Origin: Candidatus Dormibacteria bacterium
GTDB lineage: Bacteria > Chloroflexota > Dormibacteria > Aeolococcales > Aeolococcaceae
Reading direction: 5' to 3'
DNA length: 64,000 bases
Assembly (NCBI GenBank): GCA_050010655.1
Contig: JBEKKP010000003.1
Coordinates: 6,498 to 70,497, forward strand
The position numbers were made by a program, and so were the translations under genes. Of the stretch, positions 22,618 to 61,374 are shown piece by piece. Within the stretch, counting starts at the first letter, position 1. Each line of letters opens with the position of its first letter. The notes below the pieces were generated by a model. That model had not been told where the DNA came from. It worked only from the letters and a program-made list of their open reading frames with translations, and ran no database searches.

Positions 22618-23177
22618 CGCTGCCTCGGGCGTATGAGGACCAGCTTGTCGAGCGTGCCAAACAGGACGCAGACGCCTTTGGGGAACTGTACGACCACTAC
22701 TTCGGGCAGATCTACCGGTTCGTCTTCAGCCGCTTGAGAGATCAGGAGGCCGCGGAGGACGTCACCTCAGAGGTCTTCTTCAAAGCACTCCGCGCAATCG
22801 GGCGATACAAACCGGCGGGCCATCCCTTCAGTGCCTGGCTCTATCAGATCAGCGTCAATGCCATCAATGATCATTACCGCAGCCGCAAACCGACCTCGAG
22901 CCTCGACAGCGCAATCGCTGTCGCTGATCCGGCTCGCCCTGTTGACGACCGAGTCGTTGACAGCGCCGAAGCCGCTCGGGTGTGGGCAGCCATCGACGAT
23001 CTCCCTCCGCAGCAGAGGGCGGCCATGACCTTGAAGCTCGGCGAGGATCTCAAGCTCGCCCAGATCGGCGAGATCCTGGGGAAGAGCGAGGGAGCGGTGA
23101 AGCTGCTCATCCATCGCGGGATGATCGGCGTCCGCCTCCGGCTTGGCGTCGTCGTGGCCGTCGAGGAGCAGTTCTGA
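22614..23177 (+). CDS. ECF RNA polymerase sigma factor
   Basis: Region 2 (YDHYFGQIYRFVFSRLRDQEAAEDVTSEVFFKAL) and region 4 (LGEDLKLAQIGEILGKSEGAVKLLIHRG). Confidence 0.85.
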   Translation: MTLPRAYEDQLVERAKQDADAFGELYDHYFGQIYRFVFSRLRDQEAAEDVTSEVFFKALRAIGRYKPAGHPFSAWLYQISVNAINDHYRSRKPTSSLDSAIAVADPARPVDDRVVDSAEAARVWAAIDDLPPQQRAAMTLKLGEDLKLAQIGEILGKSEGAVKLLIHRGMIGVRLRLGVVVAVEEQF

Positions 23178-25456
23178 TGGCCTGGATGGGCGGATGGTTC
23201 GATCCGGAGCTCGAAGACCTGTTCCACGGCGAACCCGAATTGCTCGAGACGGCGCAGAAAGTCCGCGCGGCGCGTCCACGTGTCGAGCCCGATCCTCGGT
23301 TCCAGAACCGGCTCCGCGCCCAGCTTGTCGCCGAGGCATCGCGTGGCGCCGGCGCACGAGGCGTTCGGCGCTGGTGGCGTCTCGGCCCGGCGCACTTCGC
23401 CTGGGGCGGCGCTTTCGTCGGAGCAGCGCTGATCACGGCAACCGTCCTCACCTTCGTCTCCAACCACCCAGCGGAGACGGTGACCGGGTTCTCGCAGCTG
23501 ACGGCACAGCACGAGGTGAGCCCCAACCAGGTGATCACCGTCGCCTTCAACCAGCCGATGAACGAGCAGGCGGTCGAGGCCGGGGTGCACATCCAGCCGG
23601 CGGTCAAGGTGTCGTACTCCTGGAAGAACAACAGCCTTGTGATCTCGCCCGCGTATCACCTCGCCGCAAACACGCCGTACGTGGTGAGCATCGCCCAAAC
23701 CGCGATCCGCTCCTTGTCGGGAGCTTCGGCAACGGCGCCGATCAACATCGTCTTCGGGACCGCCCCGACGCCGACGCCGGCCCCAGTGGTGCCCCCGTCG
23801 CTCAAGCCCGTCGTCCTCGGTGTCAACGGCGCCGCAGGATCGCTGCTGTTCGCCCCCGACGGCTCGGTGGTCAGCACCGCGGGGGTTTTGCCGGCGTCAG
23901 TGACAACGTCACCGTCACCCTCTCCGACCATTGCCACGGCGACCCCATCGGCGAGCGCGACGCCGACCCCAGAAGGCGTGATCACGCAGTCGCCCGAAGT
24001 CCCCGGTGCCCTGGTCGACTACCCGGCAGGCGGAGCTCCCGTGCAAATCGGAGCGCAGGCGGCGAGTGCCGCGGCGTTCTCGCCGAACAACCGGTATCTG
24101 GCGTTCGCGGTTGATGACGGCAACGGCGGCTCGAAGATCTTCGCCAGCCAGAGCAACGGGCAGCAGGCAAGCAGACTCGCCGACTCCGCGACGCCGGTGA
24201 CGGCACTGACCTGGGCCTCCAACGACACGATCGTGTACACCGACGGGACGGGCATCTTCTCTGTCGATCTTTCCCGCGCGCGCCACAACCTCTACACCCT
24301 CCCGGCCGCCTCGGGATCGATCGCCGGGCTGGTGCCGGGTGGCACGTACGCCTACGTCCTGCCGGCAGCCGGCACGAGCGGGTCGCTGCTCCACTGGAGC
24401 ACCGGAGCCACGCAGACACTCCAGGGTGCAGCCACCGACGTCACGTTCAGCGGCGATGGCCAGACCGTGGCGTGGATCGACGCCTCCTCCTCGCCGAGCC
24501 GTTTGCTCACCGAAGCAATCGGTGGCCAGGCGGCCCCGACGATGCTGACCCTTCCCGATCAGACCGCCACCCCAAGTGACGTGACGCTCGACCAGAATGG
24601 CAAAGAGGCCGCGTATCTGAGCACTAGCACGGCCGGGGTTGCGGAACTCGTCGTTGCGCAGCTGCCGAGTGGCACGCCACTCGCGATCGCGTCCCCCACG
24701 GATGCCTCGCAGCTGACCCTGTCCCCGGGTGGCGATCAGCTTGCATTCGTTTCGAATGGGCCGGCGGGAACGGGCATCGAGGAAGCCCCTGTGCCTGGCG
24801 CCAGTGCCGTGCACACCGGTTTGCAGATCCCTGCGGACGCGAATACGACCCTGCAGCAATTCGTCCAGGCGCAGGTCGGCCAGAACGGACAGCCGGATCT
24901 CAGTACGATCGCTGCCCTCAGCACCGCCGGCGCCGGCGCCGCGTCCAACACGCCGCAGAACCTCAGCCGCGCCTACATCATCAACACGTACCTGCAGCCG
25001 GACGGCAGCGTGGTCGCAAGCATCGAGTTGATCGTCGATCCGAACGCCGCGCACACGAACGCTCGGGTCGCGAGCGAGACGCTCCTTCTCACACAGCAGG
25101 CAGCGGGCGGATACGTCGTATCGTCGGCGAACACAACGCAACTCCGCGACGAATCCGCGGGACCGCATGTGGTGCAGGTCAACTCGACCACGACCGGGAA
25201 CATCACGACGTTGCAGGTCAGCTTTGACAGCGACCTCGATGCATCCACCGTTGCCGGCGCGGTCTCAGTGGTATCGGAGTCCGGCGCGACGGTTCCTTCG
25301 ACGACCGTCTACAACGCCGACACACGCACGGCCACGATCACGATCGCAAACGCACCGTCCGGGCAGCTCAATGTCGACATCGCCACCTCGCTCGCCGACT
25401 TCGATGGCGTGGCGCTCGCGCAGGCCTTCACGGCTCAGGTCGAAGCCGGCTCCTGA
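23177..25456 (+). CDS. anti-sigma factor: membrane-spanning with a large extracytoplasmic domain (Ig-like Big_5-type plus TolB-like beta-propeller repeats)
   Basis: Start overlaps the sigma stop (TGATG). Short cytoplasmic N-terminus, one TM helix (FAWGGAFVGAALITATVLTFV), Ala/Thr/Pro-rich linkers, and Ig-like segments at both ends. The middle holds PD40-like repeats (NNRYLAFAVDDGNGGSKIFA...). Confidence 0.7.
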   Translation: MAWMGGWFDPELEDLFHGEPELLETAQKVRAARPRVEPDPRFQNRLRAQLVAEASRGAGARGVRRWWRLGPAHFAWGGAFVGAALITATVLTFVSNHPAETVTGFSQLTAQHEVSPNQVITVAFNQPMNEQAVEAGVHIQPAVKVSYSWKNNSLVISPAYHLAANTPYVVSIAQTAIRSLSGASATAPINIVFGTAPTPTPAPVVPPSLKPVVLGVNGAAGSLLFAPDGSVVSTAGVLPASVTTSPSPSPTIATATPSASATPTPEGVITQSPEVPGALVDYPAGGAPVQIGAQAASAAAFSPNNRYLAFAVDDGNGGSKIFASQSNGQQASRLADSATPVTALTWASNDTIVYTDGTGIFSVDLSRARHNLYTLPAASGSIAGLVPGGTYAYVLPAAGTSGSLLHWSTGATQTLQGAATDVTFSGDGQTVAWIDASSSPSRLLTEAIGGQAAPTMLTLPDQTATPSDVTLDQNGKEAAYLSTSTAGVAELVVAQLPSGTPLAIASPTDASQLTLSPGGDQLAFVSNGPAGTGIEEAPVPGASAVHTGLQIPADANTTLQQFVQAQVGQNGQPDLSTIAALSTAGAGAASNTPQNLSRAYIINTYLQPDGSVVASIELIVDPNAAHTNARVASETLLLTQQAAGGYVVSSANTTQLRDESAGPHVVQVNSTTTGNITTLQVSFDSDLDASTVAGAVSVVSESGATVPSTTVYNADTRTATITIANAPSGQLNVDIATSLADFDGVALAQAFTAQVEAGS

Positions 25457-26214: not shown

Positions 26215-27672
26215 CTACCCGGAGACGGCGATTGCGGCGGCGATTGCCGCGGCTCGCGCCGGATCGCGCACGATTCGCCGCAACGGTTCCTGACGTTTCG
26301 CCCATTCGTCAGCGGTCGCGACGAGTTCCGGATGTTGCTCGATGAACGCGGTGCTGTAGTTCCCGGCGCGAAAGTCCGGGTCGTCGATCACCGCGAGGTG
26401 GTACGCGATGTTGGTGTGGATGCCCGTGATCACGTACTCGAGCAGCGCGCGGCGCATGCGGTCGAGCGCCATATCGCGTGTCGGCGCGTAGGTGATCAGC
26501 TTGGCGATCATCGGGTCGTAGTTCGGCGAGACGAGCCCGGGATTCACGAGCGAGCTGTCCACGCGCACGCCGGGACCGGCCGGTTCGTGATATCCGGTGA
26601 CCTGGCCCGGCGATGGGAGGAAGCCGCGCGCGTAATTCTCCGCATTCACCCGGCATTCGACGGCGTGCCCTCGCGGGACGACATCCGCCTGGGTCAGCGT
26701 GAGGCGCTCGCCGGCTGCGATGCGCAACTGCTCGGCAACGAGGTCGATGCCGTACACGAGTTCCGTGATCGGGTGCTCGACCTGCAGGCGCGTGTTCATC
26801 TCGAGGAAATAGAACTCGCCGTCGCGATAGATGAACTCCACGGTTCCGGCATTGACGTATCCGACTGCTCGCGCTGCGGTCACCGCTGCCTCGCCCATCC
26901 GCGCGCGCGTCTTCGCGTCGATGACCGGGGACGGCGCTTCCTCGATGATTTTCTGATGGCGACGCTGAATCGAGCATTCGCGCTCGCCGAGGTGGATGAC
27001 GTTGCCATGCGTATCCGCGAGCACCTGTATCTCGATGTGGCGCGGCTCCTCGAGGTAGCGTTCGAGAAAGATGGTGTCGTTGCCGAACGCTCGCTGCGCC
27101 GTGCTCTTGGCGGTGTCGAACGAGCCGCGCAACTCCTCCTCGTCGCGGGCGACACGCATACCGATGCCACCACCACCGGCGCTCGCCTTGATCAGGACGG
27201 GGTAGCCGATAGCTGCGGCTGCGGTCACGGTTTCCTCGATGCCGCCGAGCGCATCTGTTCCCGGAACAACCGGGACTCCCGAGTTGCGCATGCGCTCGCG
27301 TGCGGGGACTTTCTCGCCCATCGCCGCCATGGCGTCCGGCGGTGGTCCGACGAAGACGATGCCGCTATCCGCGCACGCCCGCGCGAGCTGCTGGTTCTCA
27401 CTGAGAAACCCGTACCCGGGATGGATCGCCTGGGCGCCGGTGGATTTCGCGGCGTCGATGATGCGGTCGATCACCAGGTACGACTGCGCCGCGGGCGCCG
27501 GCCCGATCTCGACAGCCTCGTCGGCAAGCAGGACGAACGCGGCAGTGCGGTCGACGTCGCTGTGCACGGCGACCGTCTTGACGCCGAGGTCGCGGCACCC
27601 GCGAATGATTCGGAGCGCTATCTCGCCGCGATTGGCGACGAGGACTTTGTCGAACATGACCTGTTGTCGCAC
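26215..27672 (-). CDS. biotin carboxylase subunit (PycA/AccC-like) of a two-subunit biotin-dependent carboxylase
   Basis: MFDKVLVANRGEIALRIIR..., the ATP-grasp motif GYPVLIKASAGGGGIGMR and the EMNTRLQVEHP motif. No BCCP domain. Confidence 0.85.
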   Translation of the reverse strand: MRQQVMFDKVLVANRGEIALRIIRGCRDLGVKTVAVHSDVDRTAAFVLLADEAVEIGPAPAAQSYLVIDRIIDAAKSTGAQAIHPGYGFLSENQQLARACADSGIVFVGPPPDAMAAMGEKVPARERMRNSGVPVVPGTDALGGIEETVTAAAAIGYPVLIKASAGGGGIGMRVARDEEELRGSFDTAKSTAQRAFGNDTIFLERYLEEPRHIEIQVLADTHGNVIHLGERECSIQRRHQKIIEEAPSPVIDAKTRARMGEAAVTAARAVGYVNAGTVEFIYRDGEFYFLEMNTRLQVEHPITELVYGIDLVAEQLRIAAGERLTLTQADVVPRGHAVECRVNAENYARGFLPSPGQVTGYHEPAGPGVRVDSSLVNPGLVSPNYDPMIAKLITYAPTRDMALDRMRRALLEYVITGIHTNIAYHLAVIDDPDFRAGNYSTAFIEQHPELVATADEWAKRQEPLRRIVRDPARAAAIAAAIAVSG

Positions 27673-30717: not shown

Positions 30718-32009
30718 GTGTGTGCCCCAGCAGCGACGGGACGTCCAATGTCGGTGCGGGCCTGCATTCCTTCGAAGTGCACGCGCGCAAGATTGCCATA
30801 TGCGCGGGTCCGAGCAGCGGAGACGTCGCCGCCGAGCGCGGTGACGCAGAGCACGCGGCCTCCGGACGTCCGGAGCGTGCCGTCAGCGCCGCGCACGGTC
30901 CCCGCGTGAAAACACAGGACATCGCTGTCGAGGGCGTCGATACCGGTGATCGCGTCGCCGCGACGCACGTCCCCGGGATAGCCCGCCGCAGCGGCAACGA
31001 CGCCGACGGCGGCACCAGGCACGGCGCGCGCGATGCCCGCGCCAACCTCGCCGTGCGCGCACGCAGTCATCACATCGAGCAGCGATTCGTCGAGCAGCGG
31101 CAGGACGACCTGTGTCTCGGGATCCCCGAAACGGGCGTTGAACTCGAGCACGCGCACGCCCTCCGGCGTGAGCATCAGGCCAGCGTACAGACACCCGACA
31201 AAGGGATTTCCCTGCTCCCGCAACGCATCGATGCAGGGCTCGAGCACGATGCGCGAAATCTCGGCGATGAACTCGTGCGACGCGGCATCGGGTGGTGGCG
31301 CAATCGCCCCCATGCCACCGGTGTTGGCGCCGCGGTCGCCATCGAAGATGCGTTTGTGATCGCGCGACGCCACCAGGCTGCGCACGTTGCGCCCGTCGCT
31401 CAGCCCGAAGACACTCACCTCAACGCCGGAGAGCACTTCCTCGACGACGACCTGACGCCCGGCATCGCCAAAGCGCAAATCCGCGAGGCACTCGTCGAGT
31501 GCGTGTTCCGCCTCATCGATGTCGGCGCACACCACAACCCCCTTGCCAAGCGCGAGCCCGTCAGCCTTGACGACACACATGCCACCCAGTTCGGCGACGA
31601 ACGCGCTGAGCTGTTTGCGATCCTCCGCACCGCCGGCGATCCAGCGCGCGGTCGGGATTCCCGCCGCATCCATGACCTGCTTCGCGTACGTCTTCGACGA
31701 CTCGATGCGAGCCGCCGCGGCGCTTGGTCCGAAGACGAGCACGCCGCTCGCCGCACACGCGTCGGCGACCCCGGCGGCTGCTGCCGCGTCGGGCCCGATG
31801 ACGACCAGGTCGACCGCGCGCTCGACCGCGAGTCTCGCCACCGCGGTCGCGTCCGTGACATCAACCGCGACGTTCTCCGCGATCTCACTCGTGCCGCCAT
31901 TTCCGGGAGCGACGATGATCGCCACGTCCGGCGCATCGCGGCGGCACGCCCATGCCAGCGCGTGCTCCCGGCCCCCGGATCCGACGATGAGGACCCGCCC
32001 TATTCCCAT
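30714..32009 (-). CDS. purD: phosphoribosylamine--glycine ligase
   Basis: [15 protein letters not shown]...ATP-grasp...[11 protein letters not shown] is typical PurD. Confidence 0.9.
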
Positions 32010-33589
32010 TCGATTGTCGACGGCGGTTTGCTCGAGATGTCGTAGACGACGCGATTCACGCCCGGCACCTCGTTGACGATGCGCCGGCTCATCAATCCAA
32101 GCACGTCGTAGGGGACCTTGGCCCAGTCCGCCGTCATGCCGTCCTCGCTCTCCACGATGCGAATCGCCACGACGTTGCCGTACGTCCGGTAGTCGCCCAT
32201 CACTCCGACAGACGAGATCGGCGTCAGGATCGCAAAGGACTGCCAGACCTTGCGGTAGAGACCGCTGCGCTTGATCTCATCGATCACAACCCAGTCAGCG
32301 GCGCGCAGCGTCTCGAGGCGCTCGCGAGTGACTTCACCGATGATGCGGATCGCGAGACCAGGTCCCGGGAAGGGCTGGCGGAACACCATGTCCTCGGGAA
32401 GTCCGAGCGCGAGACCGACATTGCGGACCTCGTCCTTGAAGAGATACCGCAGAGGCTCGACGAGCTCGAAACGGAGGTTCTCCGGCAACCCGCCGACGTT
32501 GTGATGCGTCTTGATCTTGGTGGCGTTGTGGGTGTCGTGCGACGTCGACTCGATGACGTCCGGGTAGAGCGTCCCCTGGGCGAGAAAGTCGATGTTGCCG
32601 AGACGTTTTGCCTGCTCCTCGAAGACGCGGATGAAGGTCGCGCCGATGCGCCGGCGTTTCTCCTCGGGGTCGATCACCCCGGCGAGCGCATCGAGAAACT
32701 GGTCCGTCGCATCGACATGCACGAGCCGGATATGCCGCTGGGTGATCATCACGTCGACCACCCGCTCGCCCTCGCCGCGGCGGAGCAACCCGTTGTCGAC
32801 AAAGACGCACGTCAGCTGATCACCAACCGCCCGGTGCACGAGCGTGGCTGCCACAGCCGAATCCACGCCACCGCTCAGTGCGCAGATCACCCTGCCGTCG
32901 CCAATCTGCCGGCGCAGCGCGGCGATGGTTGTCTCGATGAACGAGTCGGCCTGCCAGGTGCCCGCGCAGCCGCAGACGTCGATCAGGAAATTGCGCAGAA
33001 CGTCACGGCCGAGTGGCGTGTGCGCGACCTCGAGATGGAACTGGATGCCGTACCGACGACCCGGTCCGACGAACGCTGCGCACGACGAGTTGAGCGAGTG
33101 CGCTATTGCCCGAAATCCGGTGGGGAGCTCGGTGATGACGTCGCCGTGCGACATCCAGACGGCGAGCTCCGAAGGCAGTTTCGCGAAGAGCCCGGCGTTG
33201 TCGTCAACCGTCACCGACGCGCTTCCGTACTCGCGACGTTCTGCTGGAGCAACGGCTCCGCCGAGGTCGACCGCGAGCAACTGCATGCCGTAGCAGATGC
33301 CGAGAATGGGGATGTCGAGGTCGTAGAGCGCAGGATCCGGATGCGGCGCGCCGGGCTCGAACACCGACGCCGGCCCGCCGCTGAAAATGATGCCGCGTGG
33401 CGCGCGCCGGCGGATCTCGTCGGCGCTGATGGAGCCGGGAACGAGCTCGCAGTACACATGCGCCTCGCGCACGCGACGCGCGATCAACTGGCTGTACTGG
33501 CTGCCGAAATCGAGGACCAGGATCGTGTCCTGCGCGATCTGCGCAGGCGCTAGTGTCGGAGCCCCTGCATCAGTCGCAACAGTCATCAC
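32000..33589 (-). CDS. guaA: GMP synthase (glutamine-hydrolysing)
   Basis: GATase domain ([20 protein letters not shown]), the ATP-PPase motif SGGVDSAV and the C-terminal ...STIEWE. Confidence 0.9.
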
Positions 33590-50270: not shown

Positions 50271-50564
50271 CTACTCGGCGTACCGCCGGATGCGGTTGTC
50301 CTCCTCGCCGTGCTCGCTCTGATAGAGCGAGCAGGTCTCGGGCTCGGAGATGCAGGGCGGCATGGGGTGACGACCGGTGAACTTGTGGGTCTGCCGGTCG
50401 ACGTGGCAGTCGGCCTTGTACCTGGTCAGCATGCCGAACGGGCCGGCACTCTCCTTGAGGATCTGCTCGAGGTACGGGCAGCGACGTCCGCGAGGACGAG
50501 ATGGCGCCGACTCGCGCTGCGGCTCTGGCCTGCCACGAGGTGGCGGCGGTGGTTCTGCTCGCAT
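50271..50564 (-). CDS. small hypothetical protein with N-terminal polyproline and four Cys (possible Zn ribbon)
   Basis: MRAEPPPPPRGRPEP...CPYLEQIL...CHVD...PPCISEPETCS. Family not recognised. Confidence 0.4.
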   Translation of the reverse strand: MRAEPPPPPRGRPEPQRESAPSRPRGRRCPYLEQILKESAGPFGMLTRYKADCHVDRQTHKFTGRHPMPPCISEPETCSLYQSEHGEEDNRIRRYAE

Positions 50565-50586: not shown

Positions 50587-50952
50587 TTACGGGGCGAGCA
50601 TCGACTGGATGCGCGAAGCGAGTTCCTTGATCTTGAAGGGCTTCGCGAGCGTCTGCACGTTGCCGTACGCCTCCAGCTTGGGTGCCGTCGATGCATTCAC
50701 GAGCGCGCTGACCACGAGCACCTTGGGATCGCTGCCGTGATCGGAGCGGATCCGCTCGAGCACCTGCGTGCCTGAGAGGTCGCCCGGCAGCATCAGGTCG
50801 AGCAGCACCAGATCTGGCTGGAACTCCACGAACGCTGCGAGGCCCTCGTCGCCGCTCTTCGCCACCTTCACCTCGTAGCCCTCCATCGTGCAGAGCAGAG
50901 ATTCGATGTCGGCGAGCGCGTAATAGTCCTCGATGATCAGGACCTTCTTCAT
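50587..50952 (-). CDS. single-domain response regulator (CheY-like receiver)
   Basis: MKKVLIIEDYY...DLVLLDLMLP...KPF gives the Asp pocket plus conserved Lys. 121 aa. The rest of the 368-aa ORF is rejected. Confidence 0.8.
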   Translation of the reverse strand: MKKVLIIEDYYALADIESLLCTMEGYEVKVAKSGDEGLAAFVEFQPDLVLLDLMLPGDLSGTQVLERIRSDHGSDPKVLVVSALVNASTAPKLEAYGNVQTLAKPFKIKELASRIQSMLAP

Positions 50953-51089
50953 GGCGGTACTCGTCGCTGGGGTCATTTGGGGATCCGGCCGAATATAGCA
51001 CGGGCATTTCCGCGGCCCTGGCGGGTGTGTCCAAGCCGTCACTGAGCGACGCACCGCCGACACAGCAGCGCCACGCGCCGAGGCTCCGA

Positions 51090-52256
51090 TCAGATCGAGC
51101 GGTCGATCAGCGTGCCTGTTCCGAGGCCCCCGCCACAGCACATCGCCTGCAGGCCGTATCGGGCGTCGCGCCGCTCGAGCTCGTGGAGGAGGGTGGTCAT
51201 GAGCCGTGCCCCGCTCGCGCCGAGCGGGTGGCCCAGCGCGATGGCGCCGCCGTTGACATTGACGCGGTCCATGTCCGGGTGGTGCTCCTGCTCCCACGCC
51301 AGGACGACGGGCGCGAAGGCCTCGTTGATCTCGAACAGGTCGATGTCGTCGATCCCGAGGCCCGATCGCTCGAGCAGCCTGGTCGTTGCGGGAATCGGTC
51401 CGGTGAGCATCGTGACCGGGTCCACGCCGACCACGGTCTGACCGGCGATGCGTGCGCGGGGCGTGATGCCGAGCTCGGTCGCGCGCTCCAGCGACATCAG
51501 CAGCACGGCGGCCGCGCCGTCGGTGATCTGCGAGCTGTTGCCTGCGTGCATGATGCCGTCGGGCTTGAAGGCCGGCTGCAGCGACGCCAGCGACTCGGCG
51601 GTGGTGTCCGGGCGGATGCCCTGGTCCTGGCTGATCACGCGGCCGTCGCCGTTGGCGCCGACCACGACAGGCGCGATCTCGCGGTCGAACCACCCGTTCG
51701 CCTGCGCCTCACCGGCGCGGCGTTGGGAGCGGGCCGCGAACTCGTCTGCCTGCTCACGGGTGATGTGCCACATCTCCGCGATCATCTCCGCGGACAGTCC
51801 CTGGGGCACCAGGTTGTAGACCTCGAGCAACTCTGGCGGGAACGGCATCCCGGGACCCTGGAACACCGTCGTTCCCATCGGCACGCGGCTCATGCTCTCC
51901 ACGCCCGCGGCGATCGTGATGTCGCAGACGCCGGACTGGATCAGGTTCGCGGCGAAGTGGATTGCCTGTTGCGACGAGCCGCACTGGCGATCGACCGTCG
52001 TTGCCGGCACCTCGACGGGAAACCCGGCGGCGAGCACTGCCTGCCGCGCGATGTTCACGGCCTGCTCGCCGGTCTGGCTCACGCATCCGAAGATGACGTC
52101 GCCAACCAGCGCGGGGTCGATGGCTGCGCGGCTGGTCACCTCGCGGAGCACGTGGGCCGCCAGGAGAACGGGATGCACGTCGCGGAGATCGCCGTTGCGC
52201 TGGTTGCCGCGCCCCATCGGCGTCCGGACGGCTTCGACGATGACGACGTCAGTCAT
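51090..52256 (-). CDS. acetyl-CoA C-acyltransferase (thiolase)
   Basis: VIVEAVRTPMGR...active-site Cys region...C-terminal CGGGLG. Confidence 0.9.
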   Translation of the reverse strand: MTDVVIVEAVRTPMGRGNQRNGDLRDVHPVLLAAHVLREVTSRAAIDPALVGDVIFGCVSQTGEQAVNIARQAVLAAGFPVEVPATTVDRQCGSSQQAIHFAANLIQSGVCDITIAAGVESMSRVPMGTTVFQGPGMPFPPELLEVYNLVPQGLSAEMIAEMWHITREQADEFAARSQRRAGEAQANGWFDREIAPVVVGANGDGRVISQDQGIRPDTTAESLASLQPAFKPDGIMHAGNSSQITDGAAAVLLMSLERATELGITPRARIAGQTVVGVDPVTMLTGPIPATTRLLERSGLGIDDIDLFEINEAFAPVVLAWEQEHHPDMDRVNVNGGAIALGHPLGASGARLMTTLLHELERRDARYGLQAMCCGGGLGTGTLIDRSI

Positions 52257-52373: not shown

Positions 52374-53966
52374 TCAGCCGCCGAATCGGTAGACGGTCTC
52401 GACGACCGGTCGCGGCGCGGAAGGGTCGAGCAGGTTCGCCGGTGCGCGCTCGGAGGCCACCAGCGTCCAGCCGCTCGGCGGCAGCGGGTCGTACGGGCTG
52501 ATCACGAGCGTGTCGCCCACCGCCGGTTGGCTCGCGTAGACGGCTTCCACAGGCACGACCTCCATGCCGAGTGCTTCCAGACCGGGGGTGGCGTCGTCGG
52601 TCTCGACCTGGCGCGGCGGTGGTGGCAGGTAGTGGAAGAACGCTTCGATGTACGGCGGGTCGAGCGACTCCGAAAGGTAGACCCGATGCGACCCCGCGAG
52701 GTCGTGCGCCGTGACGATGGCAGCGATCTCGCCGGTATCGAAGTCGCCGGCCGAGCGGTTGGGATATGCCCCGTAGAGGTCCACCGTGAAGTACGCGGCT
52801 TGCGCCACCACGCCCGCACCCAGCACGGCGACCACGATGCGGCCGGCCCCGATCCGTCCCCGGAGCGCCGTCCGCAGGCCGTCCGCGCCAAGGATCGCGA
52901 GGATCACCAGGAACGGGAACATTCCCGACGAGCGCAGCGCATGTGGCGTCCCGTTGTTGGTGAGTGCTGCCGCGATCGGGCTCAAGACGATGCCTGCCAC
53001 AAGGAAGCGCGTCAAGGGCTCGCGGCGCCGCTGCCAGCACACGACGATCCCCGCGATCAGCAGCGGGGCCATGGCCCAGAGCAGCATGCCGCCGATCTCG
53101 GTGTTCTGGCGCGGATTCCCGTCTCCCGAGAAGAACAGGAAATTCGGGCTGAAGTATGTGACGTAGTTGACGAGAAACCGGTCGATCACCACGTTGAGCG
53201 GAGCGCCGTCAGCCCAGATGCTGATCTCGGAAAACCGCCCGGTCAGCGCGCCGGGATTGGCAAGCATGTAGATGCCGAGCACCGCATACCCCGCGGCGAT
53301 GGGGACGAGCGTTCGCCACCAGCCGTTGTTCTTCGCAAGCCACCACGCAATCACGAGGGGAATCGCGAGCAGCAGCATCTCGAGACGCGCGGTCGTGTAG
53401 CCGTAAATCGCGAACGCGAGGAACACGCCGGCGATGCCGAACTGTCGCGCAGTCGGCTGCCGTCCGACGAGGCACCAGAGCGCACCCGAGAGCAGTGCGA
53501 CCATCGAGATCGTTTCGAAGCCGACCCTGCTCTCGATCACCAGCCATGGAGTGAACGCCGTGAGTGCGAGCGTGCCGAACGTGATCAACCGCGAGCCGGT
53601 CATCCGCCATGCAGCCGCGGTGAGAAACGCAACCACCGCGAGGCCGAAGATCGCGGCGGGAAACCGTTCCACCGCAACGGTCAGTGGCAGGAACCGGACC
53701 AGCGCGGCGACTGCATAGACGTAGATTGGATTCTTGTATTCGCCAAACGCTTCGAAGAAGAGCGGGAAGTGAATCCCGTGCTCGTCGACGCCGAAGTGCG
53801 CGATGGTCCAGGCGTTGTAACCGATCGATGCCTCATCGACGTAGAGACCAGGCGGTGAGCCGGAGAGGTCGACGACGTTGCGAACGATGACGACGACCGC
53901 GAGGATCGCGACCGCCGCGATCCAGATGCGGCGGTGCAACCGGTCAGGGCTCGGCTCAGCGCTCAC
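52374..53966 (-). CDS. glycosyltransferase family 39 (ArnT/PMT-like) polytopic membrane protein
   Basis: About 11 TM helices, an N-terminal loop DE motif (YVDEASIGYNAW) and PMT_2-like hydrophobic architecture. GTG start overlaps the upstream stop (GTGA). Confidence 0.7.
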   Translation of the reverse strand: MSAEPSPDRLHRRIWIAAVAILAVVVIVRNVVDLSGSPPGLYVDEASIGYNAWTIAHFGVDEHGIHFPLFFEAFGEYKNPIYVYAVAALVRFLPLTVAVERFPAAIFGLAVVAFLTAAAWRMTGSRLITFGTLALTAFTPWLVIESRVGFETISMVALLSGALWCLVGRQPTARQFGIAGVFLAFAIYGYTTARLEMLLLAIPLVIAWWLAKNNGWWRTLVPIAAGYAVLGIYMLANPGALTGRFSEISIWADGAPLNVVIDRFLVNYVTYFSPNFLFFSGDGNPRQNTEIGGMLLWAMAPLLIAGIVVCWQRRREPLTRFLVAGIVLSPIAAALTNNGTPHALRSSGMFPFLVILAILGADGLRTALRGRIGAGRIVVAVLGAGVVAQAAYFTVDLYGAYPNRSAGDFDTGEIAAIVTAHDLAGSHRVYLSESLDPPYIEAFFHYLPPPPRQVETDDATPGLEALGMEVVPVEAVYASQPAVGDTLVISPYDPLPPSGWTLVASERAPANLLDPSAPRPVVETVYRFGG

Positions 53967-54685
53967 GCACGCGCGGCAGCGACGAAGTCGGCAAACAGCC
54001 GCCGCGCCCACTCACGCTCGAGATACAGCTCCTCGGGATGACATTGCAGACCGACGACGAACCGGCGCCCGGGATGTTCCACCGCCTCGACGAGTCCGTC
54101 GTGTGCGCGAGCGCTCACCACAAGATCGCGGCCGATGTCGCGCAACGCCTGGTGATGCATGCTGTTGACGTCGACAAGCGTTGCGCCGGCGATCGCGTGC
54201 AAGCGTGAATCGGATGCGACGTCGATGTTGTGCGTGAGCTCCTGACGTGACCCGTCCTGCGAATGGTTGTGCTCGGTCGCACCCTGCGTGCCGACGTCCT
54301 GCCAGAGCGTTCCGCCAAGCGCAACATTGAGCACCTGCGCGCCGCGGCAGATTGCGAGGATCGGCTTGTCGGCCTCGAGCGCCCAGCGTGCGAGCAGCAG
54401 CTCAGAGCGGTCGAGCTCGTGATCCACCTCGACTGCGCAATCGTCGCGTGTCGCCTCGCCGTAGAGCTCCGGCTCGACGTCGGGCCCACCGGGGAGGCAC
54501 AGGCCGTCGCAGAGATCGAAGAGCTCGCGCAGCCCCAGCTCCGACAACGATGCGCTGATGCCGAGGGGCGTCCCGCCCGCTCCCTCGAGCGCGTCGAAAT
54601 ACGCGCGGTTGCGAGCGAGGTCGGCGGGAAGTCCCTTCTCGTGCAGCACCCGCAGCGTGATGCCGATCAGCGGAGCGTGTGACAT
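53963..54685 (-). CDS. gamma-glutamyl-gamma-aminobutyrate hydrolase family (peptidase C26, class I glutamine amidotransferase-like)
   Basis: ILAICRGAQVLNVALGG...HHQ has the Cys-His triad layout of PuuD-like hydrolases. Confidence 0.8.
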   Translation of the reverse strand: MSHAPLIGITLRVLHEKGLPADLARNRAYFDALEGAGGTPLGISASLSELGLRELFDLCDGLCLPGGPDVEPELYGEATRDDCAVEVDHELDRSELLLARWALEADKPILAICRGAQVLNVALGGTLWQDVGTQGATEHNHSQDGSRQELTHNIDVASDSRLHAIAGATLVDVNSMHHQALRDIGRDLVVSARAHDGLVEAVEHPGRRFVVGLQCHPEELYLEREWARRLFADFVAAARA

Positions 54686-54701
54686 GGGGAAACCTTCGCG
54701 A

Positions 54702-56024
54702 CTACGACGTGAAACTGAAGCGGCCGATGTGCAACCAGGGTGACAGTACCCCGGATTCGCCTTCTCCCAGCTCGAGACGACGCTCGCGGCTCACCTGGAG
54801 CACATTGGCGAGCGCTTCGACAATGCTTTGCGTGAAGCGCAGATCCTTGACGGGGTGCGTGATGCTCCCGTTCTCGATGAGGAACGTGCCTTCGCGGGTC
54901 ATGCCGGTGATCACCGTGCGCAGCGGATGGACGTCGCGCACGTACCACAAGCGAGTGATGTACAAGCCGCGTGAGACGGATCCCACCATCTCCGTCCAGG
55001 GAGTGTCGCCGGCGTCCATCGCAACGTGGCGCGGCAGTGGGCCCCACGTGTTCGGCTGCGGCAGGGAATGTCCCGTCGACGCGACGCCGTCCTGCAACGC
55101 CGTCGGCGTGTCGTAGACGACCGCGGCGCAGACCCCGCGATCGATGAGTGTCACCGGTTTCGTCGACACTCCCTCGTCGTCGAAGGGGAAGGGAAAGATG
55201 TCATGCGTGCGCGCGTCGTCGCGTATCGTGATCTTCTCGCTCATGAGCTTCTCGCCGAGGCGCATGAAGCTTCGGTGCTCCTGCAACGCCAGGGCGCTGA
55301 AGCCAACCCAGGCAAGGTGCTCCAGCAGGTCGGTCACCGCATACGGCGAGAGAATCACCTCGTAGTCACCCGGTCCGACCTCCGTCGCGTTCTGATTGCG
55401 CTCGCAGGTGTCGACGACCTCGGCGGCGAGACCCGGGACGTCGAGAGCGGCGATGTCTGCCGAGTGCCGCGACGCGTAGCCACCGCCGTTGTCGCCGCGC
55501 GCGACCGACACCAGGCTCGCCTGCGTCGATGTCGCCGATCTGCGCAGCCCCGAGCTGGTGATGATCGCGGTCGTCGTGGTGCTGGTACTCAACGCGCCAT
55601 ACGCGTTGACACCGTGCGCGCCCGCCGCCTCCGTGATGGTTGCCACCAGCTCGGCCCGTTCCTGCGGAGTCGCGGAGTCGGTTGACGCCGAAAAGGCGAC
55701 CGGGCCGTCACCGTTCTGGTCGCCGGCAGGCAACGGCGACACGTCGCTTGCGCTGGTCACACGCCGGCTCTGCTCGGCAGCGTCGAACGCAAGCGCGATC
55801 GCTGCATCGCCGTGCCCGCGCACCTCACCGACCCCGATGCGCCCGCCGTCGATGAGCCGCACTCGGATGTGCCGGTATCGCTCGGCAACGCTCTGGTGGA
55901 TCTCGTTGCTCGCGAAACGGGTGAGCTCGCTGCGCGAATCCGCAATGACCACCTCTGCCTCACCGTGCTTGAGCGAGGCAAGTGCGCTGTCGCCAAGTGC
56001 GAGCAGTTCGTCCCCGGTGCTCAT
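54702..56024 (-). CDS. PmbA/TldE-family metalloprotease subunit (peptidase U62)
   Basis: U62 fold, with the C-terminal ...LVEALANVLQVS...FSFTS end characteristic of the family. Start at the internal Met MSTGDELL, which overlaps the upstream tldD stop (ATGA). Confidence 0.75.
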   Translation of the reverse strand: MSTGDELLALGDSALASLKHGEAEVVIADSRSELTRFASNEIHQSVAERYRHIRVRLIDGGRIGVGEVRGHGDAAIALAFDAAEQSRRVTSASDVSPLPAGDQNGDGPVAFSASTDSATPQERAELVATITEAAGAHGVNAYGALSTSTTTTAIITSSGLRRSATSTQASLVSVARGDNGGGYASRHSADIAALDVPGLAAEVVDTCERNQNATEVGPGDYEVILSPYAVTDLLEHLAWVGFSALALQEHRSFMRLGEKLMSEKITIRDDARTHDIFPFPFDDEGVSTKPVTLIDRGVCAAVVYDTPTALQDGVASTGHSLPQPNTWGPLPRHVAMDAGDTPWTEMVGSVSRGLYITRLWYVRDVHPLRTVITGMTREGTFLIENGSITHPVKDLRFTQSIVEALANVLQVSRERRLELGEGESGVLSPWLHIGRFSFTS

Positions 56025-57541
56025 CGCGCCGGCTCCACGCGAACGTTGCGAAAACGGCACGGAGCGGCGCCGTGACCGACGTGCATCGATTGCGAAGGCT
56101 GGCCCTTCCCACAGTTCACGACGCCGAACATCTGCCACTCTGCCGGACCGGCGACTGCGTCGCACGATCCCCAGAACTCTGGCGTCTGCCCGCTGTAGAT
56201 GGGGTTGCGCACCAATCTGGTGCGCTCGCCGTTGACGATCTCCCACCCGTTCTGCGTGCCGAACTGAAAGTTGAGGCGCCGGTCATCGATGCTCCACGAC
56301 CGGTTGGTCTCGAGGTACACGCCGTGCTCGGTGGTGGCGATCATCTCCTCGAGGCTGGATGTTCCCGGTTCGAGGTTGATGTTGGTCATGCGGATGATCG
56401 GCAGCCGGCCCCAGCCATCCGCGCGCATGGCGCCGTTGCTCAACTGGCCGATGGCCGCGGCGGTCTCACGGGATGTGAGGTATCCGGTGAAGATGCCCCG
56501 GTCGACCAGCACCGATCGTTGCGCCGGCACGCCCTCGTCGTCCCAACCGAACGTTCCCAGGCCGGGCGCCCGTGTGGAATCGGCGGTCATGGTCACCTGG
56601 TCGCTGCCGTAGCGAAAGGTGCCGAGCATGCCGGGCATCAGGAACGACGTCCCGGCATATGCCGCCTCGTGCCCGAGCACACGGTCGAGTTCCGTCGGAT
56701 GGCCGCACGATTCGTGCACCTGGAGTGCGGCCTGCGTCGCATCGAGGATCACCGTCATGGTTCCTGCCGGGCACTCCGCGGCGCTCAGCAGCGCGACTGC
56801 CTCCTCGGCGATTCGCCCGGCGTTGCCGGGGAGATCGAACGCCTCGATGGCCTCCCACCCGGCGCAGATCTGATGGCGTCCGAAGCTGTTCGGAAAGCTG
56901 CGGGTCTGGACGTCATCGTCACTGGTGGCAGTGGCGTCGAGCCCGCCACCGGATTCGATGATCGTCTGATCCAGCGATGCGCCTTCGCTGCTCGCGAAAT
57001 GGCGCACCTCACGAACAAATTCGAGCGAGCACTCGCGAACCCGGATCTGGGGCAGGCGCGACATGGCAAGGTCGGTCCGCAGGAGCAGGTCGACCTTGTC
57101 GTCGAGGGAAACCGCAAAGGGATCGCGCACGACGGGCGTCCGGAATTCGCCGACCAGGGCCGGGGCCGGGGCCAATCGCACGGGTACGTGGTTGACGCGC
57201 GATGACGCCTTGGCGATACGGACCGCCTGCCGAGCTGCTTCCTCGATGCTCGATCCGCTGAGATCGTCGACCCCGGCGAACCCCCAGGAACCACCCGCGA
57301 TGACGCGAATGCCGATGCCCTCGTCCTCGAAGAGCTCCACCGACGCCACCGCCCCGTTCTTGACGGTGAGCCGCTGCACGGTGCGATTGATGACCCTGCA
57401 GTCGGCATACGACGCACCTGCTGCAGACGCCGCGTCAAGAGCTCGCTCGCTGAGATCACGCACGAGGGCGGAGTATACGGGCCGCAGTACCGCCGAACGT
57501 TTCGGAGTTAGCCCTCGCAATCTCCCGCGGTGCACGACCAC
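56021..57541 (-). CDS. tldD: TldD-family metalloprotease (peptidase U62), start uncertain
   Basis: HESCGHPTELDRV metal-binding motif and a GSWGFAGVDDLS region. The start could be GTG at 57541, an internal TTG, or ATG at 57670, which would overlap the SBP gene by 56 nt. Confidence 0.75.
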   Translation of the reverse strand: MVVHRGRLRGLTPKRSAVLRPVYSALVRDLSERALDAASAAGASYADCRVINRTVQRLTVKNGAVASVELFEDEGIGIRVIAGGSWGFAGVDDLSGSSIEEAARQAVRIAKASSRVNHVPVRLAPAPALVGEFRTPVVRDPFAVSLDDKVDLLLRTDLAMSRLPQIRVRECSLEFVREVRHFASSEGASLDQTIIESGGGLDATATSDDDVQTRSFPNSFGRHQICAGWEAIEAFDLPGNAGRIAEEAVALLSAAECPAGTMTVILDATQAALQVHESCGHPTELDRVLGHEAAYAGTSFLMPGMLGTFRYGSDQVTMTADSTRAPGLGTFGWDDEGVPAQRSVLVDRGIFTGYLTSRETAAAIGQLSNGAMRADGWGRLPIIRMTNINLEPGTSSLEEMIATTEHGVYLETNRSWSIDDRRLNFQFGTQNGWEIVNGERTRLVRNPIYSGQTPEFWGSCDAVAGPAEWQMFGVVNCGKGQPSQSMHVGHGAAPCRFRNVRVEPAR

Positions 57542-57614
57542 GCGGCTATGTCGAAATCGGGAACGAGATCGTTCTGCACGACGCCGCGGAGACTCGATGA
57601 GTACGTGTTGACGA

Positions 57615-59342
57615 TCACCTGTCGATAGAGCGGTATCGCCGGCAGCAGCGCGTGCCGCCGCAATCGCCATGCCATGTCGATGAGTACGTGTCGGGCTCAC
57701 CGGGAATACCGAGCGCAATTGTGTACAGAGCCGTGTCGAATGCATGTGTCGCAAGCGGGCCGCCGTCGGCAAACGAACCGAAGAACGTCGCGGCGGGGAC
57801 GTTCGGCTCGAACGCCGCCGGGACGTTGATGCCGATGTTGGCCAGATCGGTGCGGATCATCGCTTCCACCGCCACCCGCACCGGGTCATCGCTGGTGGTG
57901 CCGATGTTGATGACGATGCACGTGCCGTCTTTCTCCGCCCGGAAGTCCTCTCCGTCAGGCGCAGCACCGCACTTCGAGATCCGCGTATCACCGGCCGAGT
58001 CGAGCATGGCGTTGGCCGTTGCCGGGTTATATGCGGTGGTGGCGACGCCGTCACTTGAGAGATAGGTCGCTCCCAGGCTCATCCACGAATCCGCGGGAAT
58101 TGTGGTGTCGCCCGGCGCGACCGCTTTGATGATCGCCGCGCGGTCGATGCCAAGCAGTATCGCCTGACGAACGGTCGCGTCCGAGGTGTCCTCGTTCTCA
58201 TCGGCGGCCGGGTTGTCGCAGAGCCCACCGTCGGTGGCGCAGAGGTTGAACATGAGCACCTCCGCGCCGGATCCATTCACCGGATTGACAGTAAACGGCG
58301 CGGTATGCGCGTGAACGGCCGCATTCAGTGCCGGAAGCGCAGCCAACCCGAGGTTCAGGCCCACCTCCACGGCACCCGACTGCACGTCCTTCTCCTCGGC
58401 AGCGAGATCCGGCTCGATCCGGAACACGATCTCGTCGAGGTGCGGAGCGGCGGCCTGGTTCCAGTAGTGCGGATTGCGCACCAGGACCATTTGATTGCCC
58501 GGCGAGTAGCTCGCCATCACGAATGGCCCGGTTCCATCGAGCACCTGACTCAGCGACGAGGTGCCGTTGAAAGCGGCCGACGTACCCGAGCCCGTGGCCA
58601 GATCGAAGGTGTCATCCATGGTGTCGAGATTGCTGCCGGTCGACATGACCTTGTCGAGCACATCAGCAGGCAGGATCCCGTCGACGCCGCTCCCGAGCGC
58701 GAGATACGGCCCGTACTGCGACTTGAAGGACACGACCGCCGTGTACTGGTCCAGCTCGGTGCACTTGATCACCTGGTCCCACCCGGCTGTCGATGCGAGC
58801 GGCGTGGGGTTGGGCTTGCCGAGCGCGCCATACGCCAGCCAGTGGAATGCAAACGTGGCGCACACGTCGTGCGAGCTGAACGTGCCGCCGTCATCCCACG
58901 TCACGTCGTGACGCAGGTGCCACGTGACGCACATAGCGGCCGCGGTGTCCGCACAGTGGCTCGTCGCCACGTCGCCATTGGCCAGGGTCGGCACCTCTGT
59001 CGCAAGGTCGGGGCTCCAGTAGTCAGCCTCCGAACTCGAACTCGCCGTGTCGGCCGTGGAGCGATACCAGAGGAGACCCTCTTCCACCGGCGCCGCAATC
59101 ACGTCCGCGGTGGAAAGGTCGCCGCTGATGCCGTCGTCGAGCAATGTCGACGGCGCCTGCCAGACGCCGACGGTCAGTTTCGCCCCGGCGGCAGCGGTGC
59201 CTCCGGGGGCACCCGTGGGCGACGTCTTGGCCGGTGTGGACGTGCAGCCGGCCAGCAGGATGGCGAGGAGTGCCACGAGCGGCGTCGCTCCGTGCCACCG
59301 CCTGCCACTGCGGGGGATGAGTCGAGAACCCGCGAAAGACAC
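57615..59342 (-). CDS. ABC transporter substrate-binding lipoprotein, family 5 (peptide/nickel type)
   Basis: Lipobox LLAGC after a basic n-region. SBP_bac_5-like length and motifs. GTG start proposed. Confidence 0.75.
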   Translation of the reverse strand: MSFAGSRLIPRSGRRWHGATPLVALLAILLAGCTSTPAKTSPTGAPGGTAAAGAKLTVGVWQAPSTLLDDGISGDLSTADVIAAPVEEGLLWYRSTADTASSSSEADYWSPDLATEVPTLANGDVATSHCADTAAAMCVTWHLRHDVTWDDGGTFSSHDVCATFAFHWLAYGALGKPNPTPLASTAGWDQVIKCTELDQYTAVVSFKSQYGPYLALGSGVDGILPADVLDKVMSTGSNLDTMDDTFDLATGSGTSAAFNGTSSLSQVLDGTGPFVMASYSPGNQMVLVRNPHYWNQAAAPHLDEIVFRIEPDLAAEEKDVQSGAVEVGLNLGLAALPALNAAVHAHTAPFTVNPVNGSGAEVLMFNLCATDGGLCDNPAADENEDTSDATVRQAILLGIDRAAIIKAVAPGDTTIPADSWMSLGATYLSSDGVATTAYNPATANAMLDSAGDTRISKCGAAPDGEDFRAEKDGTCIVINIGTTSDDPVRVAVEAMIRTDLANIGINVPAAFEPNVPAATFFGSFADGGPLATHAFDTALYTIALGIPGEPDTYSSTWHGDCGGTRCCRRYRSIDR

Positions 59343-59436: not shown

Positions 59437-61374
59437 ATGAGGATCGGCCGCGGGAGACGTCCGCGCAGGCGCGACCCGAGGCGGCGCTTCCGTAATCACC
59501 TGCTCCTGGGCATGGTGACCGTCGCGTTGCTGCCGTTGCTCGCATTTGCGGTCCTTGCGGTGTTCGAGCTCGACACCGTTGCAAAAAGCACGGCCAACGC
59601 GACGGAAACGGCGATTCTGGGGCACCAGCAGAGCCTCGCCACCGCTGCGCTGGCCAGGCGCGCCGGCGTACTCGACGACACCATGAACTCGATCGACGGT
59701 GCGGTTCAGGAGGGGCTCGGCGGGGCGCTCACCAAGGCGATCCAGGCGACGCCGGCCAAGACGCCACTCCCCGCGACCCCGATGACGCCATTGAGCGCGG
59801 CATTCCAGTTCGTGTCCACCAGCACCAGCGCATTGAGCAGCACATTGATCGTCCCGACCGGCGTCACAACCGACGGACGCTTTGCGGCGGCAAGCGCCGA
59901 CCCCTCGATCGTCGCCCAGGTACAGGCGATTTTCAGGGCCAACAAGGCGATCCAGTCGGTGTGGTTTCAGGACGCCGCGACCGGGGCCATCCGGGCGTAC
60001 CCGGCGTTCGTCCCGAGCCCCCTCTACGATCCCGCCGCTCGCGCCAGGATTCTGAACGGGTCGGAGGGTGGTATCGCGGCCGCCAGCGCACCGAACGTGT
60101 GGATTCAGCAGGGCGCGCCCGGGCGGAGTGAAGACGGACCGTTCTGGACGGATCCGTATCCACTCCTCGAGAGCGGCACGACGACCGGCGTGAGTGCCTG
60201 GTATCAGAACCCATCGTCGATTCAGGTAGGCGTTGACGTCTCCATCCCTGCGCTCATCGCGCCGTCCCTGATCACCGGGGCTCCCGCCAACCTGAACCCG
60301 GTCGTCCTCAGCGCGACCGGAGCTGTGCTGTACAGCTCACCGGGCTCTTCGTCCGACTTCCCCTCCGGCTCGTCGACTTCGCCGACCCCACCCGCAAAGC
60401 CTTCCTTTGATTCCTCGCTTCGCCGCATAGAAATCACTGGGGCAACACCGGCAACGCCCCTCAGTGCGACCTTGGACAAGGTGAGCACGGACCTGTTCAC
60501 GTCACCCGTCTACAGCTCGCACTGGATCGTCCTGAACCCCGTTCCGGTCAACACCCTCGAGCCCAATCTGAGCCAGCTCACCCTTGGGGTCACGGACAGC
60601 GTCCATCGCCTCTTCCCGGTGATGGTCCTCCCAGTTCTGATCCTGCTCGTCGGACTCGCGTTCATCGCCACGACATTGCTCTCGCGCCGCATGTATCTCC
60701 CCGTGCAGGCGCTCACCGACCACGCAGTGCTCGAGGAGCGCACGCGCCTCGCCCGGGAGATCCACGACACGCTCGCGCAGCAGCTCACCGGCATCGTGCT
60801 CGAGCTCGAAGCCGCCGACACCCTCTTGAACCGGGGATCGGAAGGCCGTGCCAGGTCGTCCGTGGAGCGCGCTCGAGAGCTCGCGCGCGGCGCCCTTCAG
60901 GAGGCCCGCAGCTCGGTGTGGAACCTTCGTCCTGCACCGCTCTCAGCCACCGGTCTTGTTGCGGCGATCGGCCACGAGGTTGAAGCGTGGGAGGAGCGCA
61001 CGGGCATCCCTGCTCGTTTCCGGGCCCGCGCAGTGCCGCCGCACCCGCCGCTTTCGCCGACGGCCGAGGTCGCGCTCCTGCGCATCGGTCAGGAAGCGCT
61101 CTCGAACGCTGCACGGCACGGCAAGCCGGAACACGTCGACGTCGAGCTCCGGGCCCACGCGCAGGAACTCGTCCTCTCCGTCCGTGACGACGGGATCGGG
61201 TTCGACCCAGCGGCGAGTGCGCCCCGCGAGGACTGTTTCGGCCTCGACGGCATGGCCGAGCGCGCGCGCAACGCGGGCGGATCGCTGACCGTGGTGAGCG
61301 CTCCGGGCCAGGGCACCACGGTCACGACCCGCCTGCCATTCACGGAACGAGTCGTCGAGGCTGTGAGCGCGTGA
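59437..61374 (+). CDS. sensor histidine kinase (HisKA_3/NarX-type) with a large extracytoplasmic sensor domain
   Basis: Two TM segments flank a sensor domain of about 340 aa. H-box LAREIHDTLAQQL and an HATPase_c domain follow. Confidence 0.85.
   Translation: MRIGRGRRPRRRDPRRRFRNHLLLGMVTVALLPLLAFAVLAVFELDTVAKSTANATETAILGHQQSLATAALARRAGVLDDTMNSIDGAVQEGLGGALTKAIQATPAKTPLPATPMTPLSAAFQFVSTSTSALSSTLIVPTGVTTDGRFAAASADPSIVAQVQAIFRANKAIQSVWFQDAATGAIRAYPAFVPSPLYDPAARARILNGSEGGIAAASAPNVWIQQGAPGRSEDGPFWTDPYPLLESGTTTGVSAWYQNPSSIQVGVDVSIPALIAPSLITGAPANLNPVVLSATGAVLYSSPGSSSDFPSGSSTSPTPPAKPSFDSSLRRIEITGATPATPLSATLDKVSTDLFTSPVYSSHWIVLNPVPVNTLEPNLSQLTLGVTDSVHRLFPVMVLPVLILLVGLAFIATTLLSRRMYLPVQALTDHAVLEERTRLAREIHDTLAQQLTGIVLELEAADTLLNRGSEGRARSSVERARELARGALQEARSSVWNLRPAPLSATGLVAAIGHEVEAWEERTGIPARFRARAVPPHPPLSPTAEVALLRIGQEALSNAARHGKPEHVDVELRAHAQELVLSVRDDGIGFDPAASAPREDCFGLDGMAERARNAGGSLTVVSAPGQGTTVTTRLPFTERVVEAVSA

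Follow-up and report, generated by a model that had tools for sequence, protein, structure and literature searches.

What joins a peptide-binding lipoprotein, a TldD/PmbA protease pair, a C26-type peptidase and a membrane glycosyltransferase that are encoded one after another on a single strand? The five genes occupy positions 52374-59342 of a stretch of 64,000 nucleotides (nt), here called the window, from contig JBEKKP010000003.1 of a Candidatus Dormibacteria bacterium (GenBank assembly GCA_050010655.1); the genome has a GC content of roughly 66%. A preliminary description of this DNA had proposed that the five genes form one module for peptide uptake and processing, or for peptide maturation and protein O-glycosylation. 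Gene order in related genomes favours a plainer answer: the region is probably a stable stretch of core genome in which several ordinary units follow one another head to tail without forming one pathway. The five co-oriented, tightly packed minus-strand open reading frames (ORFs) are present, with some corrections to the first description, and are listed below.

57615..59342, minus strand: 5' part, up to a frameshift-induced stop, of a gene for a family-5 (peptide/nickel type) solute-binding protein (SBP) lipoprotein; Pfam SBP_bac_5
56021..57463, minus strand: tldD-like gene for the catalytic subunit of an M103 metalloprotease, 480 amino acids from a most likely start at GTG 57463; three PmbA_TldD Pfam domains
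54702..56024, minus strand: pmbA/tldE-like gene for the non-catalytic partner, 440 amino acids; three PmbA_TldD Pfam domains
53963..54685, minus strand: Peptidase C26 / class-I amidotransferase-like hydrolase, 240 amino acids, cytoplasmic; Pfam Peptidase_C26
52374..53966, minus strand: predicted GT-C-fold membrane glycosyltransferase (GT), divergent PMT_2/PMT-like, 530 amino acids

The run had been taken to end with these five. On the same strand it goes on to a thiolase, a stand-alone receiver and an ORF of 53 amino acids (s53).

Gene order across Dormibacterota

The synteny scan used one genome per species and the membrane protein 52374-53966 as anchor, and comprised 80 loci with 10-kb flanks, cited below by their L numbers. 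Ten window proteins were placed on the 80 loci by tblastn, and the arrangements rest on tblastn and on the gene calls of the collections themselves. All homologues carrying names are from Candidatus Dormibacterota, an uncultured sister lineage of Chloroflexota (PMC10608941).

The full order hom-LuxR-kinase followed, in divergent orientation, by SBP-TldD-PmbA-C26-GT-thiolase-receiver was found, flanks included, in 28 of the 80 species-level loci. All but one of these (27 of the 28) come from the clade in which the GT is at least 71% identical to that of the window, the exception being L054. Within this conserved layout hom, LuxR, kinase, thiolase, receiver and metH are kept in place as strictly as the five genes. 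Orthologous loci from deeper lineages, where GT identity is 57% at most, form a mosaic. The arrangement TldD-PmbA-GT-thiolase, without SBP and C26, is seen in L010, L052, L055, L056, L071 and L075. L079 has SBP-OppB-(C)-OppD-OppF-GT-thiolase-receiver, and L095 has SBP-OppC-D-F-MsrP-MsrQ-TldD-PmbA, two opposite-strand genes and then C26-GT-thiolase-receiver-s53. The two genes that separate Opp and tldD in L095 (4821-6231) encode an MsrP-like molybdopterin oxidoreductase and an MsrQ-like cytochrome b. L069 and L094 read SelB-...-C26-GT-thiolase-receiver, with TldD/PmbA absent within 9-10 kb. The parting of the genes in other lineages (L079, L095, L094, L069, L010, L052, L055, L056) speaks for separate units. 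The conserved five-gene synteny that was to be looked for in relatives thus holds for 28 loci and breaks up in the deeper lineages.

Stable pairing is limited to TldD-PmbA and C26-GT. Both overlaps in the window are as first reported: tldD and pmbA share ATGA at 56024-56021 (4 nt), and the C26 and GT genes share GTGA at 53966-53963. Most orthologous loci in which both starts can be placed have the same TldD>PmbA distance of -4 nt, and some deep loci have -1 to +7 nt. Nearly all loci with both genes have a C26>GT distance of -4 or -8 nt, and this holds for loci that lack TldD/PmbA as well; L011 and L021 (-11), L062 (+47) and L018 (+162, a long-read metagenome-assembled genome (MAG) in which TldD is also split) depart from it. 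The genes that accompany the GT most regularly are those for the thiolase, the receiver and s53. TldD/PmbA in turn keep to the same locus largely regardless of their neighbours (L010, L052, L055, L056, L060, L061, L071, L075), an outcome that had been named beforehand as evidence against a module. Their position is independent of SBP and C26, and a five-gene module is therefore not supported.

Family and fold assignments, catalytic motifs, junctions and the pattern of synteny were observed directly; from them the following roles may be proposed. The first unit, the SBP gene, would be a relic of a peptide importer of Opp/Dpp type, for which deeper lineages keep permease and ATPase genes at the corresponding place. 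In the second, tldD and pmbA would encode a cytoplasmic heterodimeric zinc protease, with the metal site in TldD and PmbA as inactive partner, which may serve the general trimming of unfolded or imported oligopeptides. The third would consist of a cytoplasmic Cys-His-Glu amidohydrolase of gamma-glutamyl-amide type (C26), translationally coupled to a GT-C enzyme that would draw its sugar from a polyprenyl-phosphate carrier at the outer face of the membrane, probably in envelope or lipoprotein glycosylation. A fourth unit would follow with the thiolase, the stand-alone receiver and the 53-amino-acid protein. All substrates, and likewise co-transcription, we infer.

Several observations weigh against this division. 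Spacing in the window clade is operon-like, with 42-52 nt from SBP to TldD, 16-24 nt from PmbA to C26 and overlaps elsewhere, and no terminator-like site was found between the genes; co-transcription and some shared role are possible. SBP stands beside the GT again in the otherwise rearranged loci L073 and L079. All comparison loci come from one phylum, in which descent and selection are not fully separable. A promoter and terminator scan of the region gave no signal beyond shuffled expectation.

The binding-protein gene and the TldD/PmbA pair

The product of 57615-59342 matches Pfam SBP_bac_5 at 6.1e-44 (151 bits), covering profile positions 6-323 of 368. Its translation has the lipobox LLAGC and, after the Cys, a linker rich in Ser, Thr and Pro. 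The top relative in the PDB is the Thermus peptide-binding protein 2d5w, at a mere 9e-11. No permease or ATPase genes adjoin the SBP gene in the window cluster or in its clade; such genes do occur in L079 and L095, two of the deeper loci.

An exact search with the C26 protein retrieved near-identical metagenome contigs of the Joint Genome Institute (JGI; 99.7-99.9% identity to the window). Five of these contigs span the site, and each of the five has 166 extra bases at window position 57650/57651; there the intact gene encodes a protein of 644 amino acids with its stop, TAA, at window 57508-57510. In the window the reading frame shifts after ...WHGDCGGT, and the stop at 57615 results from this frameshifting deletion of 166 bp. 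The second lobe and C-terminus are accordingly broken in the window copy, and the end of the gene is stranded.

57508..57650, minus strand: stranded, out-of-frame 3' end of the binding-protein gene, from alignment to L001-L006

A 55-amino-acid ORF at 57508-57675 is identical to the C-terminus of the intact 644-amino-acid protein. Given the deletion and the matching C-terminus, the apparent gap at 57542-57614 is a remnant of binding-protein coding sequence. This gap and 54686-54701, the 16-nt spacer between pmbA and C26 (which includes GAAGG), were the two places suggested for small unannotated ORFs; they leave no room for a precursor. The statement that no precursor-peptide ORF is evident nearby holds, and modifying-enzyme domains are absent within 10 kb.

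The 166-bp deletion was seen in none of 29 other Dormibacterota species-level loci. In the long-read MFD MAGs L018, L031, L032, L045, L049, L051 and L063, tblastn aligns TldD (about 6500-7950) in two neighbouring pieces that differ in frame, most likely through single-base assembly errors. Errors of this kind call for caution before the deletion in the window is taken as biological and not as an assembly fault.

For tldD a start at GTG 57463 (480 amino acids) is the most likely, because the start must be downstream of 57508, the gene call in L007 agrees, and the N-terminal domain stays whole. The first, second and third PmbA_TldD domains score above the gathering threshold in the products of both 56021-57541 and 54702-56024. 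Aligned to E. coli TldD (5nj5, 3.8e-34), the window TldD places HESCGH on HEAVGH, and the distal Cys ligand is kept (NCGKG on VCGK of 5nj5). HExxxH is absent from the translation of 54702-56024, and the PDB relatives of this PmbA-like protein are 1vl4, 6j6a, 1vpb and 5nj5_B. The NCBIfam equivalog cut-offs for TldD/PmbA were missed by far (152.7 against 635, 118 against 513 and 37.9 against 438 bits), with the archaeal-type TldD model scoring highest. Judged by these scores, the two proteins belong to the family but do not count as equivalogs of the enzymes from E. coli or archaea.

TldD/E is present in about 60% of bacterial genomes and is mostly a housekeeping general peptidase encoded outside biosynthetic clusters, and some peptide natural-product pathways employ proteases of this type (PMC10885120). 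The latter use is a point for the proposal that all five genes serve one pathway, be it import and processing of a gamma-glutamylated or glycosylated peptide, or maturation of a ribosomally synthesised and post-translationally modified peptide, with TldD/E as leader protease, together with O-glycosylation. Tight packing, a five-gene order kept in 28 loci and the conserved small ORF s53, encoded 7 kb further down on this strand, speak for it as well. Against it, the five-gene set splits up in deeper lineages; no cyclodehydratase, radical-SAM, PEARL, MNIO or other modifying enzyme is encoded within 10 kb; the gaps proposed to hold small ORFs are a gene remnant and a 16-nt spacer; s53 is conserved throughout and goes with the receiver even where TldD/PmbA are absent; and the SBP gene is broken in the window genome. 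The synteny data largely refute the proposal, and we give it hardly any credence. The claim of a single peptide-maturation or glycopeptide module did not survive the separation of the set in deeper lineages and the lack of a precursor ORF or modifying enzyme nearby, while the literature search, which found no description of the five-gene combination, bears out that it is not a described pathway.

Under the favoured reading of separate core-genome units, a loose nutritional link between the first two units and perhaps C26 is plausible, namely uptake and breakdown of peptides, perhaps with cleavage of gamma-glutamyl bonds. The link is weakened further in the window genome because the SBP gene is broken.

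The C26 hydrolase, the GT-C protein and the flanking genes

The C26 protein matches Pfam Peptidase_C26 at 3.5e-55 (187.6 bits, cut-off 20.5). Its nearest PDB entries are Lin1909 (3fij) and PuuD (6vtv), with the ICRG and HPE motifs aligned, and the Cys-His-Glu residues are kept (AICRG and CHPE aligned to 3fij). The cut-off of the PuuD equivalog, specific for gamma-Glu-GABA, was missed (105 against 266 bits). No signal peptide was found in the translation. A search with the divergent C26 of L069 returned only Dormibacterota as named proteins among the best 120.

The membrane protein has no match in Pfam or NCBIfam, and Pfam, including PMT (PF02366) and PMT_2 (PF13231), is blank even at E up to 10; its profile found nothing among PDB sequences, and none of 120 close homologues has a precomputed Pfam domain. 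The AlphaFold2 model (mean predicted local distance difference test, pLDDT, 86.8; predicted template-modelling score, pTM, 0.88) has ArnT as its top Foldseek match (1.9e-7), and the structural ranking places ALG12 (GT22) and ArnT (GT83) above Pmt4 (GT39). The predicted GT-C fold is accompanied by an acidic motif, DE, in the first extracytoplasmic loop; D44-E45 in YVDEASIGYNAW are invariant in an alignment of 32 sequences. The L095 orthologue (45% identity, E 1e-113) passes PMT_2 with 37.1 against a gathering score of 26.1. A profile search returned 10,450 cluster representatives; among 73 sampled profile-linked representatives 53 match PMT_2 and 13 match PMT, and one paralogue is borderline on Pfam PMT (22.5 against 22.7). 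The subfamily signature is PxGLYxDExSIGYNA...KNPxYIY, and many members are missed by Pfam. By structure prediction and homologues, which stand in for a Pfam or NCBIfam match of its own, the protein is identified as an ArnT/PMT-like GT-C enzyme. The families first assigned (SBP, TldD/PmbA, C26 and an ArnT/PMT-like fold) therefore stand, apart from the specific assignment to GT39, which was not established, PMT_2 being matched more often than PMT. A tblastn search of the GT against plasmids gave one weak, irrelevant match.

Of the 80 loci, 28 are GT paralogues (68-76% and about 40% identity) without any partner gene, accompanied by GT87 genes and a second GT-C paralogue. The order there is EAL/GGDEF - EamA - S9 peptidase - ADH - second GT-C paralogue (about 40% identity) - GT-C - small ORF - one or two GT87 genes, as seen at L091/L092/L093 (= L040), about 8400-14700, and at L078, 9968-11521. 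From this conserved paralogue locus it follows that Dormibacterota carry a GT-C-rich envelope locus.

The steadiness of the C26-GT junction raises the question of whether these two enzymes alone form a true module, with TldD/PmbA and SBP as bystanders. In such a module the cytoplasmic C26 would deprotect a lipid-linked sugar donor, or an acceptor, by taking off a gamma-glutamyl or other N-acyl group, and the GT-C would use the product after it has crossed the membrane, by analogy with the ArnD deformylase and ArnT. An overlap of 4-8 nt in nearly every locus with both genes, across 45-97% GT identity, fits this idea, as do its persistence without TldD/PmbA (L065, L067, L069, L087, L094) and in L095, the position of C26 directly upstream of the GT in about 40 of about 51 orthologous loci, the lack of a signal peptide in C26 and the DE motif in the first outer loop of the GT-C. 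Against this, C26 is missing from about ten of the orthologous loci that have the GT (L010, L052, L055, L056, L060, L061, L063, L071, L075, L079), close GT paralogues have no neighbouring C26, no donor-synthesising gene of GT2 type is adjacent, and the overlap indicates co-expression, not common chemistry. We consider a two-enzyme module unlikely. The extended proposal, that the pair, perhaps with the thiolase, the receiver and s53, is an undescribed envelope-glycosylation module of Dormibacterota in which the amidase would ready the lipid-linked donor or acceptor for the GT-C, draws on the same analogy and is quite improbable.

The genes on both sides of the five are as follows.

51090..52256, minus strand: thiolase, 117 nt downstream of the GT gene; Pfam Thiolase_N and Thiolase_C
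50587..50976, minus strand: stand-alone receiver (CheY-like); Pfam Response_reg, 4e-20
50271..50432, minus strand: s53, conserved Cys/His-containing ORF of 53 amino acids, last gene of the same-strand run; MLTRYKADCHVDRQTHKFTGRHPMPPCISEPETCSLYQSEHGEEDNRIRRYAE
59437-61374, plus strand: HisKA_3 kinase, divergently transcribed; precomputed Pfam on the near-identical contig L001
61371-61973, plus strand: LuxR-type regulator, divergently transcribed; precomputed Pfam on the near-identical contig L001

The thiolase comes after the GT in nearly all orthologous loci. The receiver is 98-100% identical in amino acid sequence where the neighbouring GT is only 70-79% identical (tblastn). It is still 79-93% identical in the deepest loci, and about 113 nt separate it from the thiolase gene that always precedes it. 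The s53 ORF follows the receiver gene after about 155 nt and has the same location in about 43 Dormibacterota loci, with 60-100% identity. Its substitutions by codon position (318/189/672) are those of a coding sequence, and the motifs KADCHVD, TGR and PPC are invariant. No Pfam match was found for s53; its database clusters number only seven, the named ones all from Dormibacteria, and its AlphaFold2 model is uninformative (pLDDT 55.7). A role of s53 as precursor peptide was rejected on two grounds: its conservation extends from end to end, and it accompanies the receiver rather than TldD/PmbA, also where the latter are absent.

On the other side of the five genes, the kinase and LuxR pair is conserved beside the binding-protein gene. 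The HisKA_3 kinase has a stretch of about 340 residues between two hydrophobic segments without domain assignment; in deeper lineages a different kinase, HAMP-GAF-HisKA_3 (852 amino acids in L007), takes the same position. This neighbourhood allows the SBP to be viewed mainly as a ligand sensor for the divergent kinase and regulator, which would control the downstream genes, and not as a part of a transporter. Every one of the 28 full loci has the divergent layout of kinase and SBP, as do L007 and L054, while L079 shows a weaker version of it; the window clade has no adjacent permease genes. On the other hand, the orthologous SBP leads a complete Opp-type operon in L079 and L095, the kinase and regulator are retained without SBP in L052, L055 and L056, and the SBP of the window is truncated while the rest of the locus is intact. 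A sensor role is highly improbable on this evidence, and an importer remainder within a row of separate units is the reading retained.

The wider window contains the following genes.

2946-3968: purM
4092-8741: set of 2-oxoacid:ferredoxin oxidoreductase genes
14620-16098: purF
16091-18313: purL
20340-21719: purB
22982-25456, plus strand: ORF of 824 amino acids with a bacterial Ig-like domain (Big_5) as sole domain match
26215-27672: biotin carboxylase
32000-33589: guaA

Positions 2946-34767 are rich in purine-biosynthesis genes, and metH, hom and thrC are further housekeeping genes in the window. This housekeeping content (pur genes, guaA, biotin carboxylase, metH, hom) indicates a core-genome setting. 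The 824-amino-acid Big_5 ORF at 22982-25456 is possibly a surface protein. No tRNA or Rfam family was found in the window.

In practical terms the result is a negative one: TldD/PmbA beside a peptidase and a glycosyltransferase should not be taken for a new system of peptide maturation. The genes are neighbours through inherited synteny of the core genome, which splits into units in deeper lineages. Smaller gains are a large GT-C subfamily with a clear signature, a phylum-wide coupling of a C26 hydrolase with a GT-C protein, and a conserved 53-amino-acid protein specific to an uncultured, globally abundant soil phylum.

Comparison with known systems

The locus consists of known families in a lineage-specific arrangement; what is new are members of these families. 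The TldD/PmbA pair shares with E. coli TldD/TldE (5nj5, MEROPS M103) the three-domain PmbA_TldD architecture, the HExxxH motif and distal Cys in TldD next to a partner without the motif, and adjacent, overlapping genes. It differs in lying far under the equivalog cut-offs and in having no microcin or other peptide-product genes nearby.

The binding lipoprotein is of family 5, as in Opp/Dpp importers, and the orthologous loci L079 and L095 have OppB/C permeases and OppD/F ATPases (oligo_HPY) directly downstream. In contrast, permease and ATPase genes are missing from the locus in the window clade, the 166-bp frameshifting deletion cuts the window copy short, and its similarity to NikA and Opp models is only weak.

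With PuuD, SpuA and Lin1909 (6vtv, 7d4r, 3fij) the C26 protein has in common a full-length Peptidase_C26 domain, the Cys of ICRG, His-Pro-Glu and a length of about 240 amino acids. It differs in staying under the PuuD equivalog score and in having no puu or spu polyamine genes nearby; its gene is instead translationally coupled to that of the GT-C protein. The latter, finally, stands apart from ArnT (GT83) and PMT (GT39) in that it matches no Pfam model and, by profile, no PDB sequence, in that arn-type donor genes are absent near it, and in that its predicted structure is as close to ALG12 (GT22) as to ArnT.

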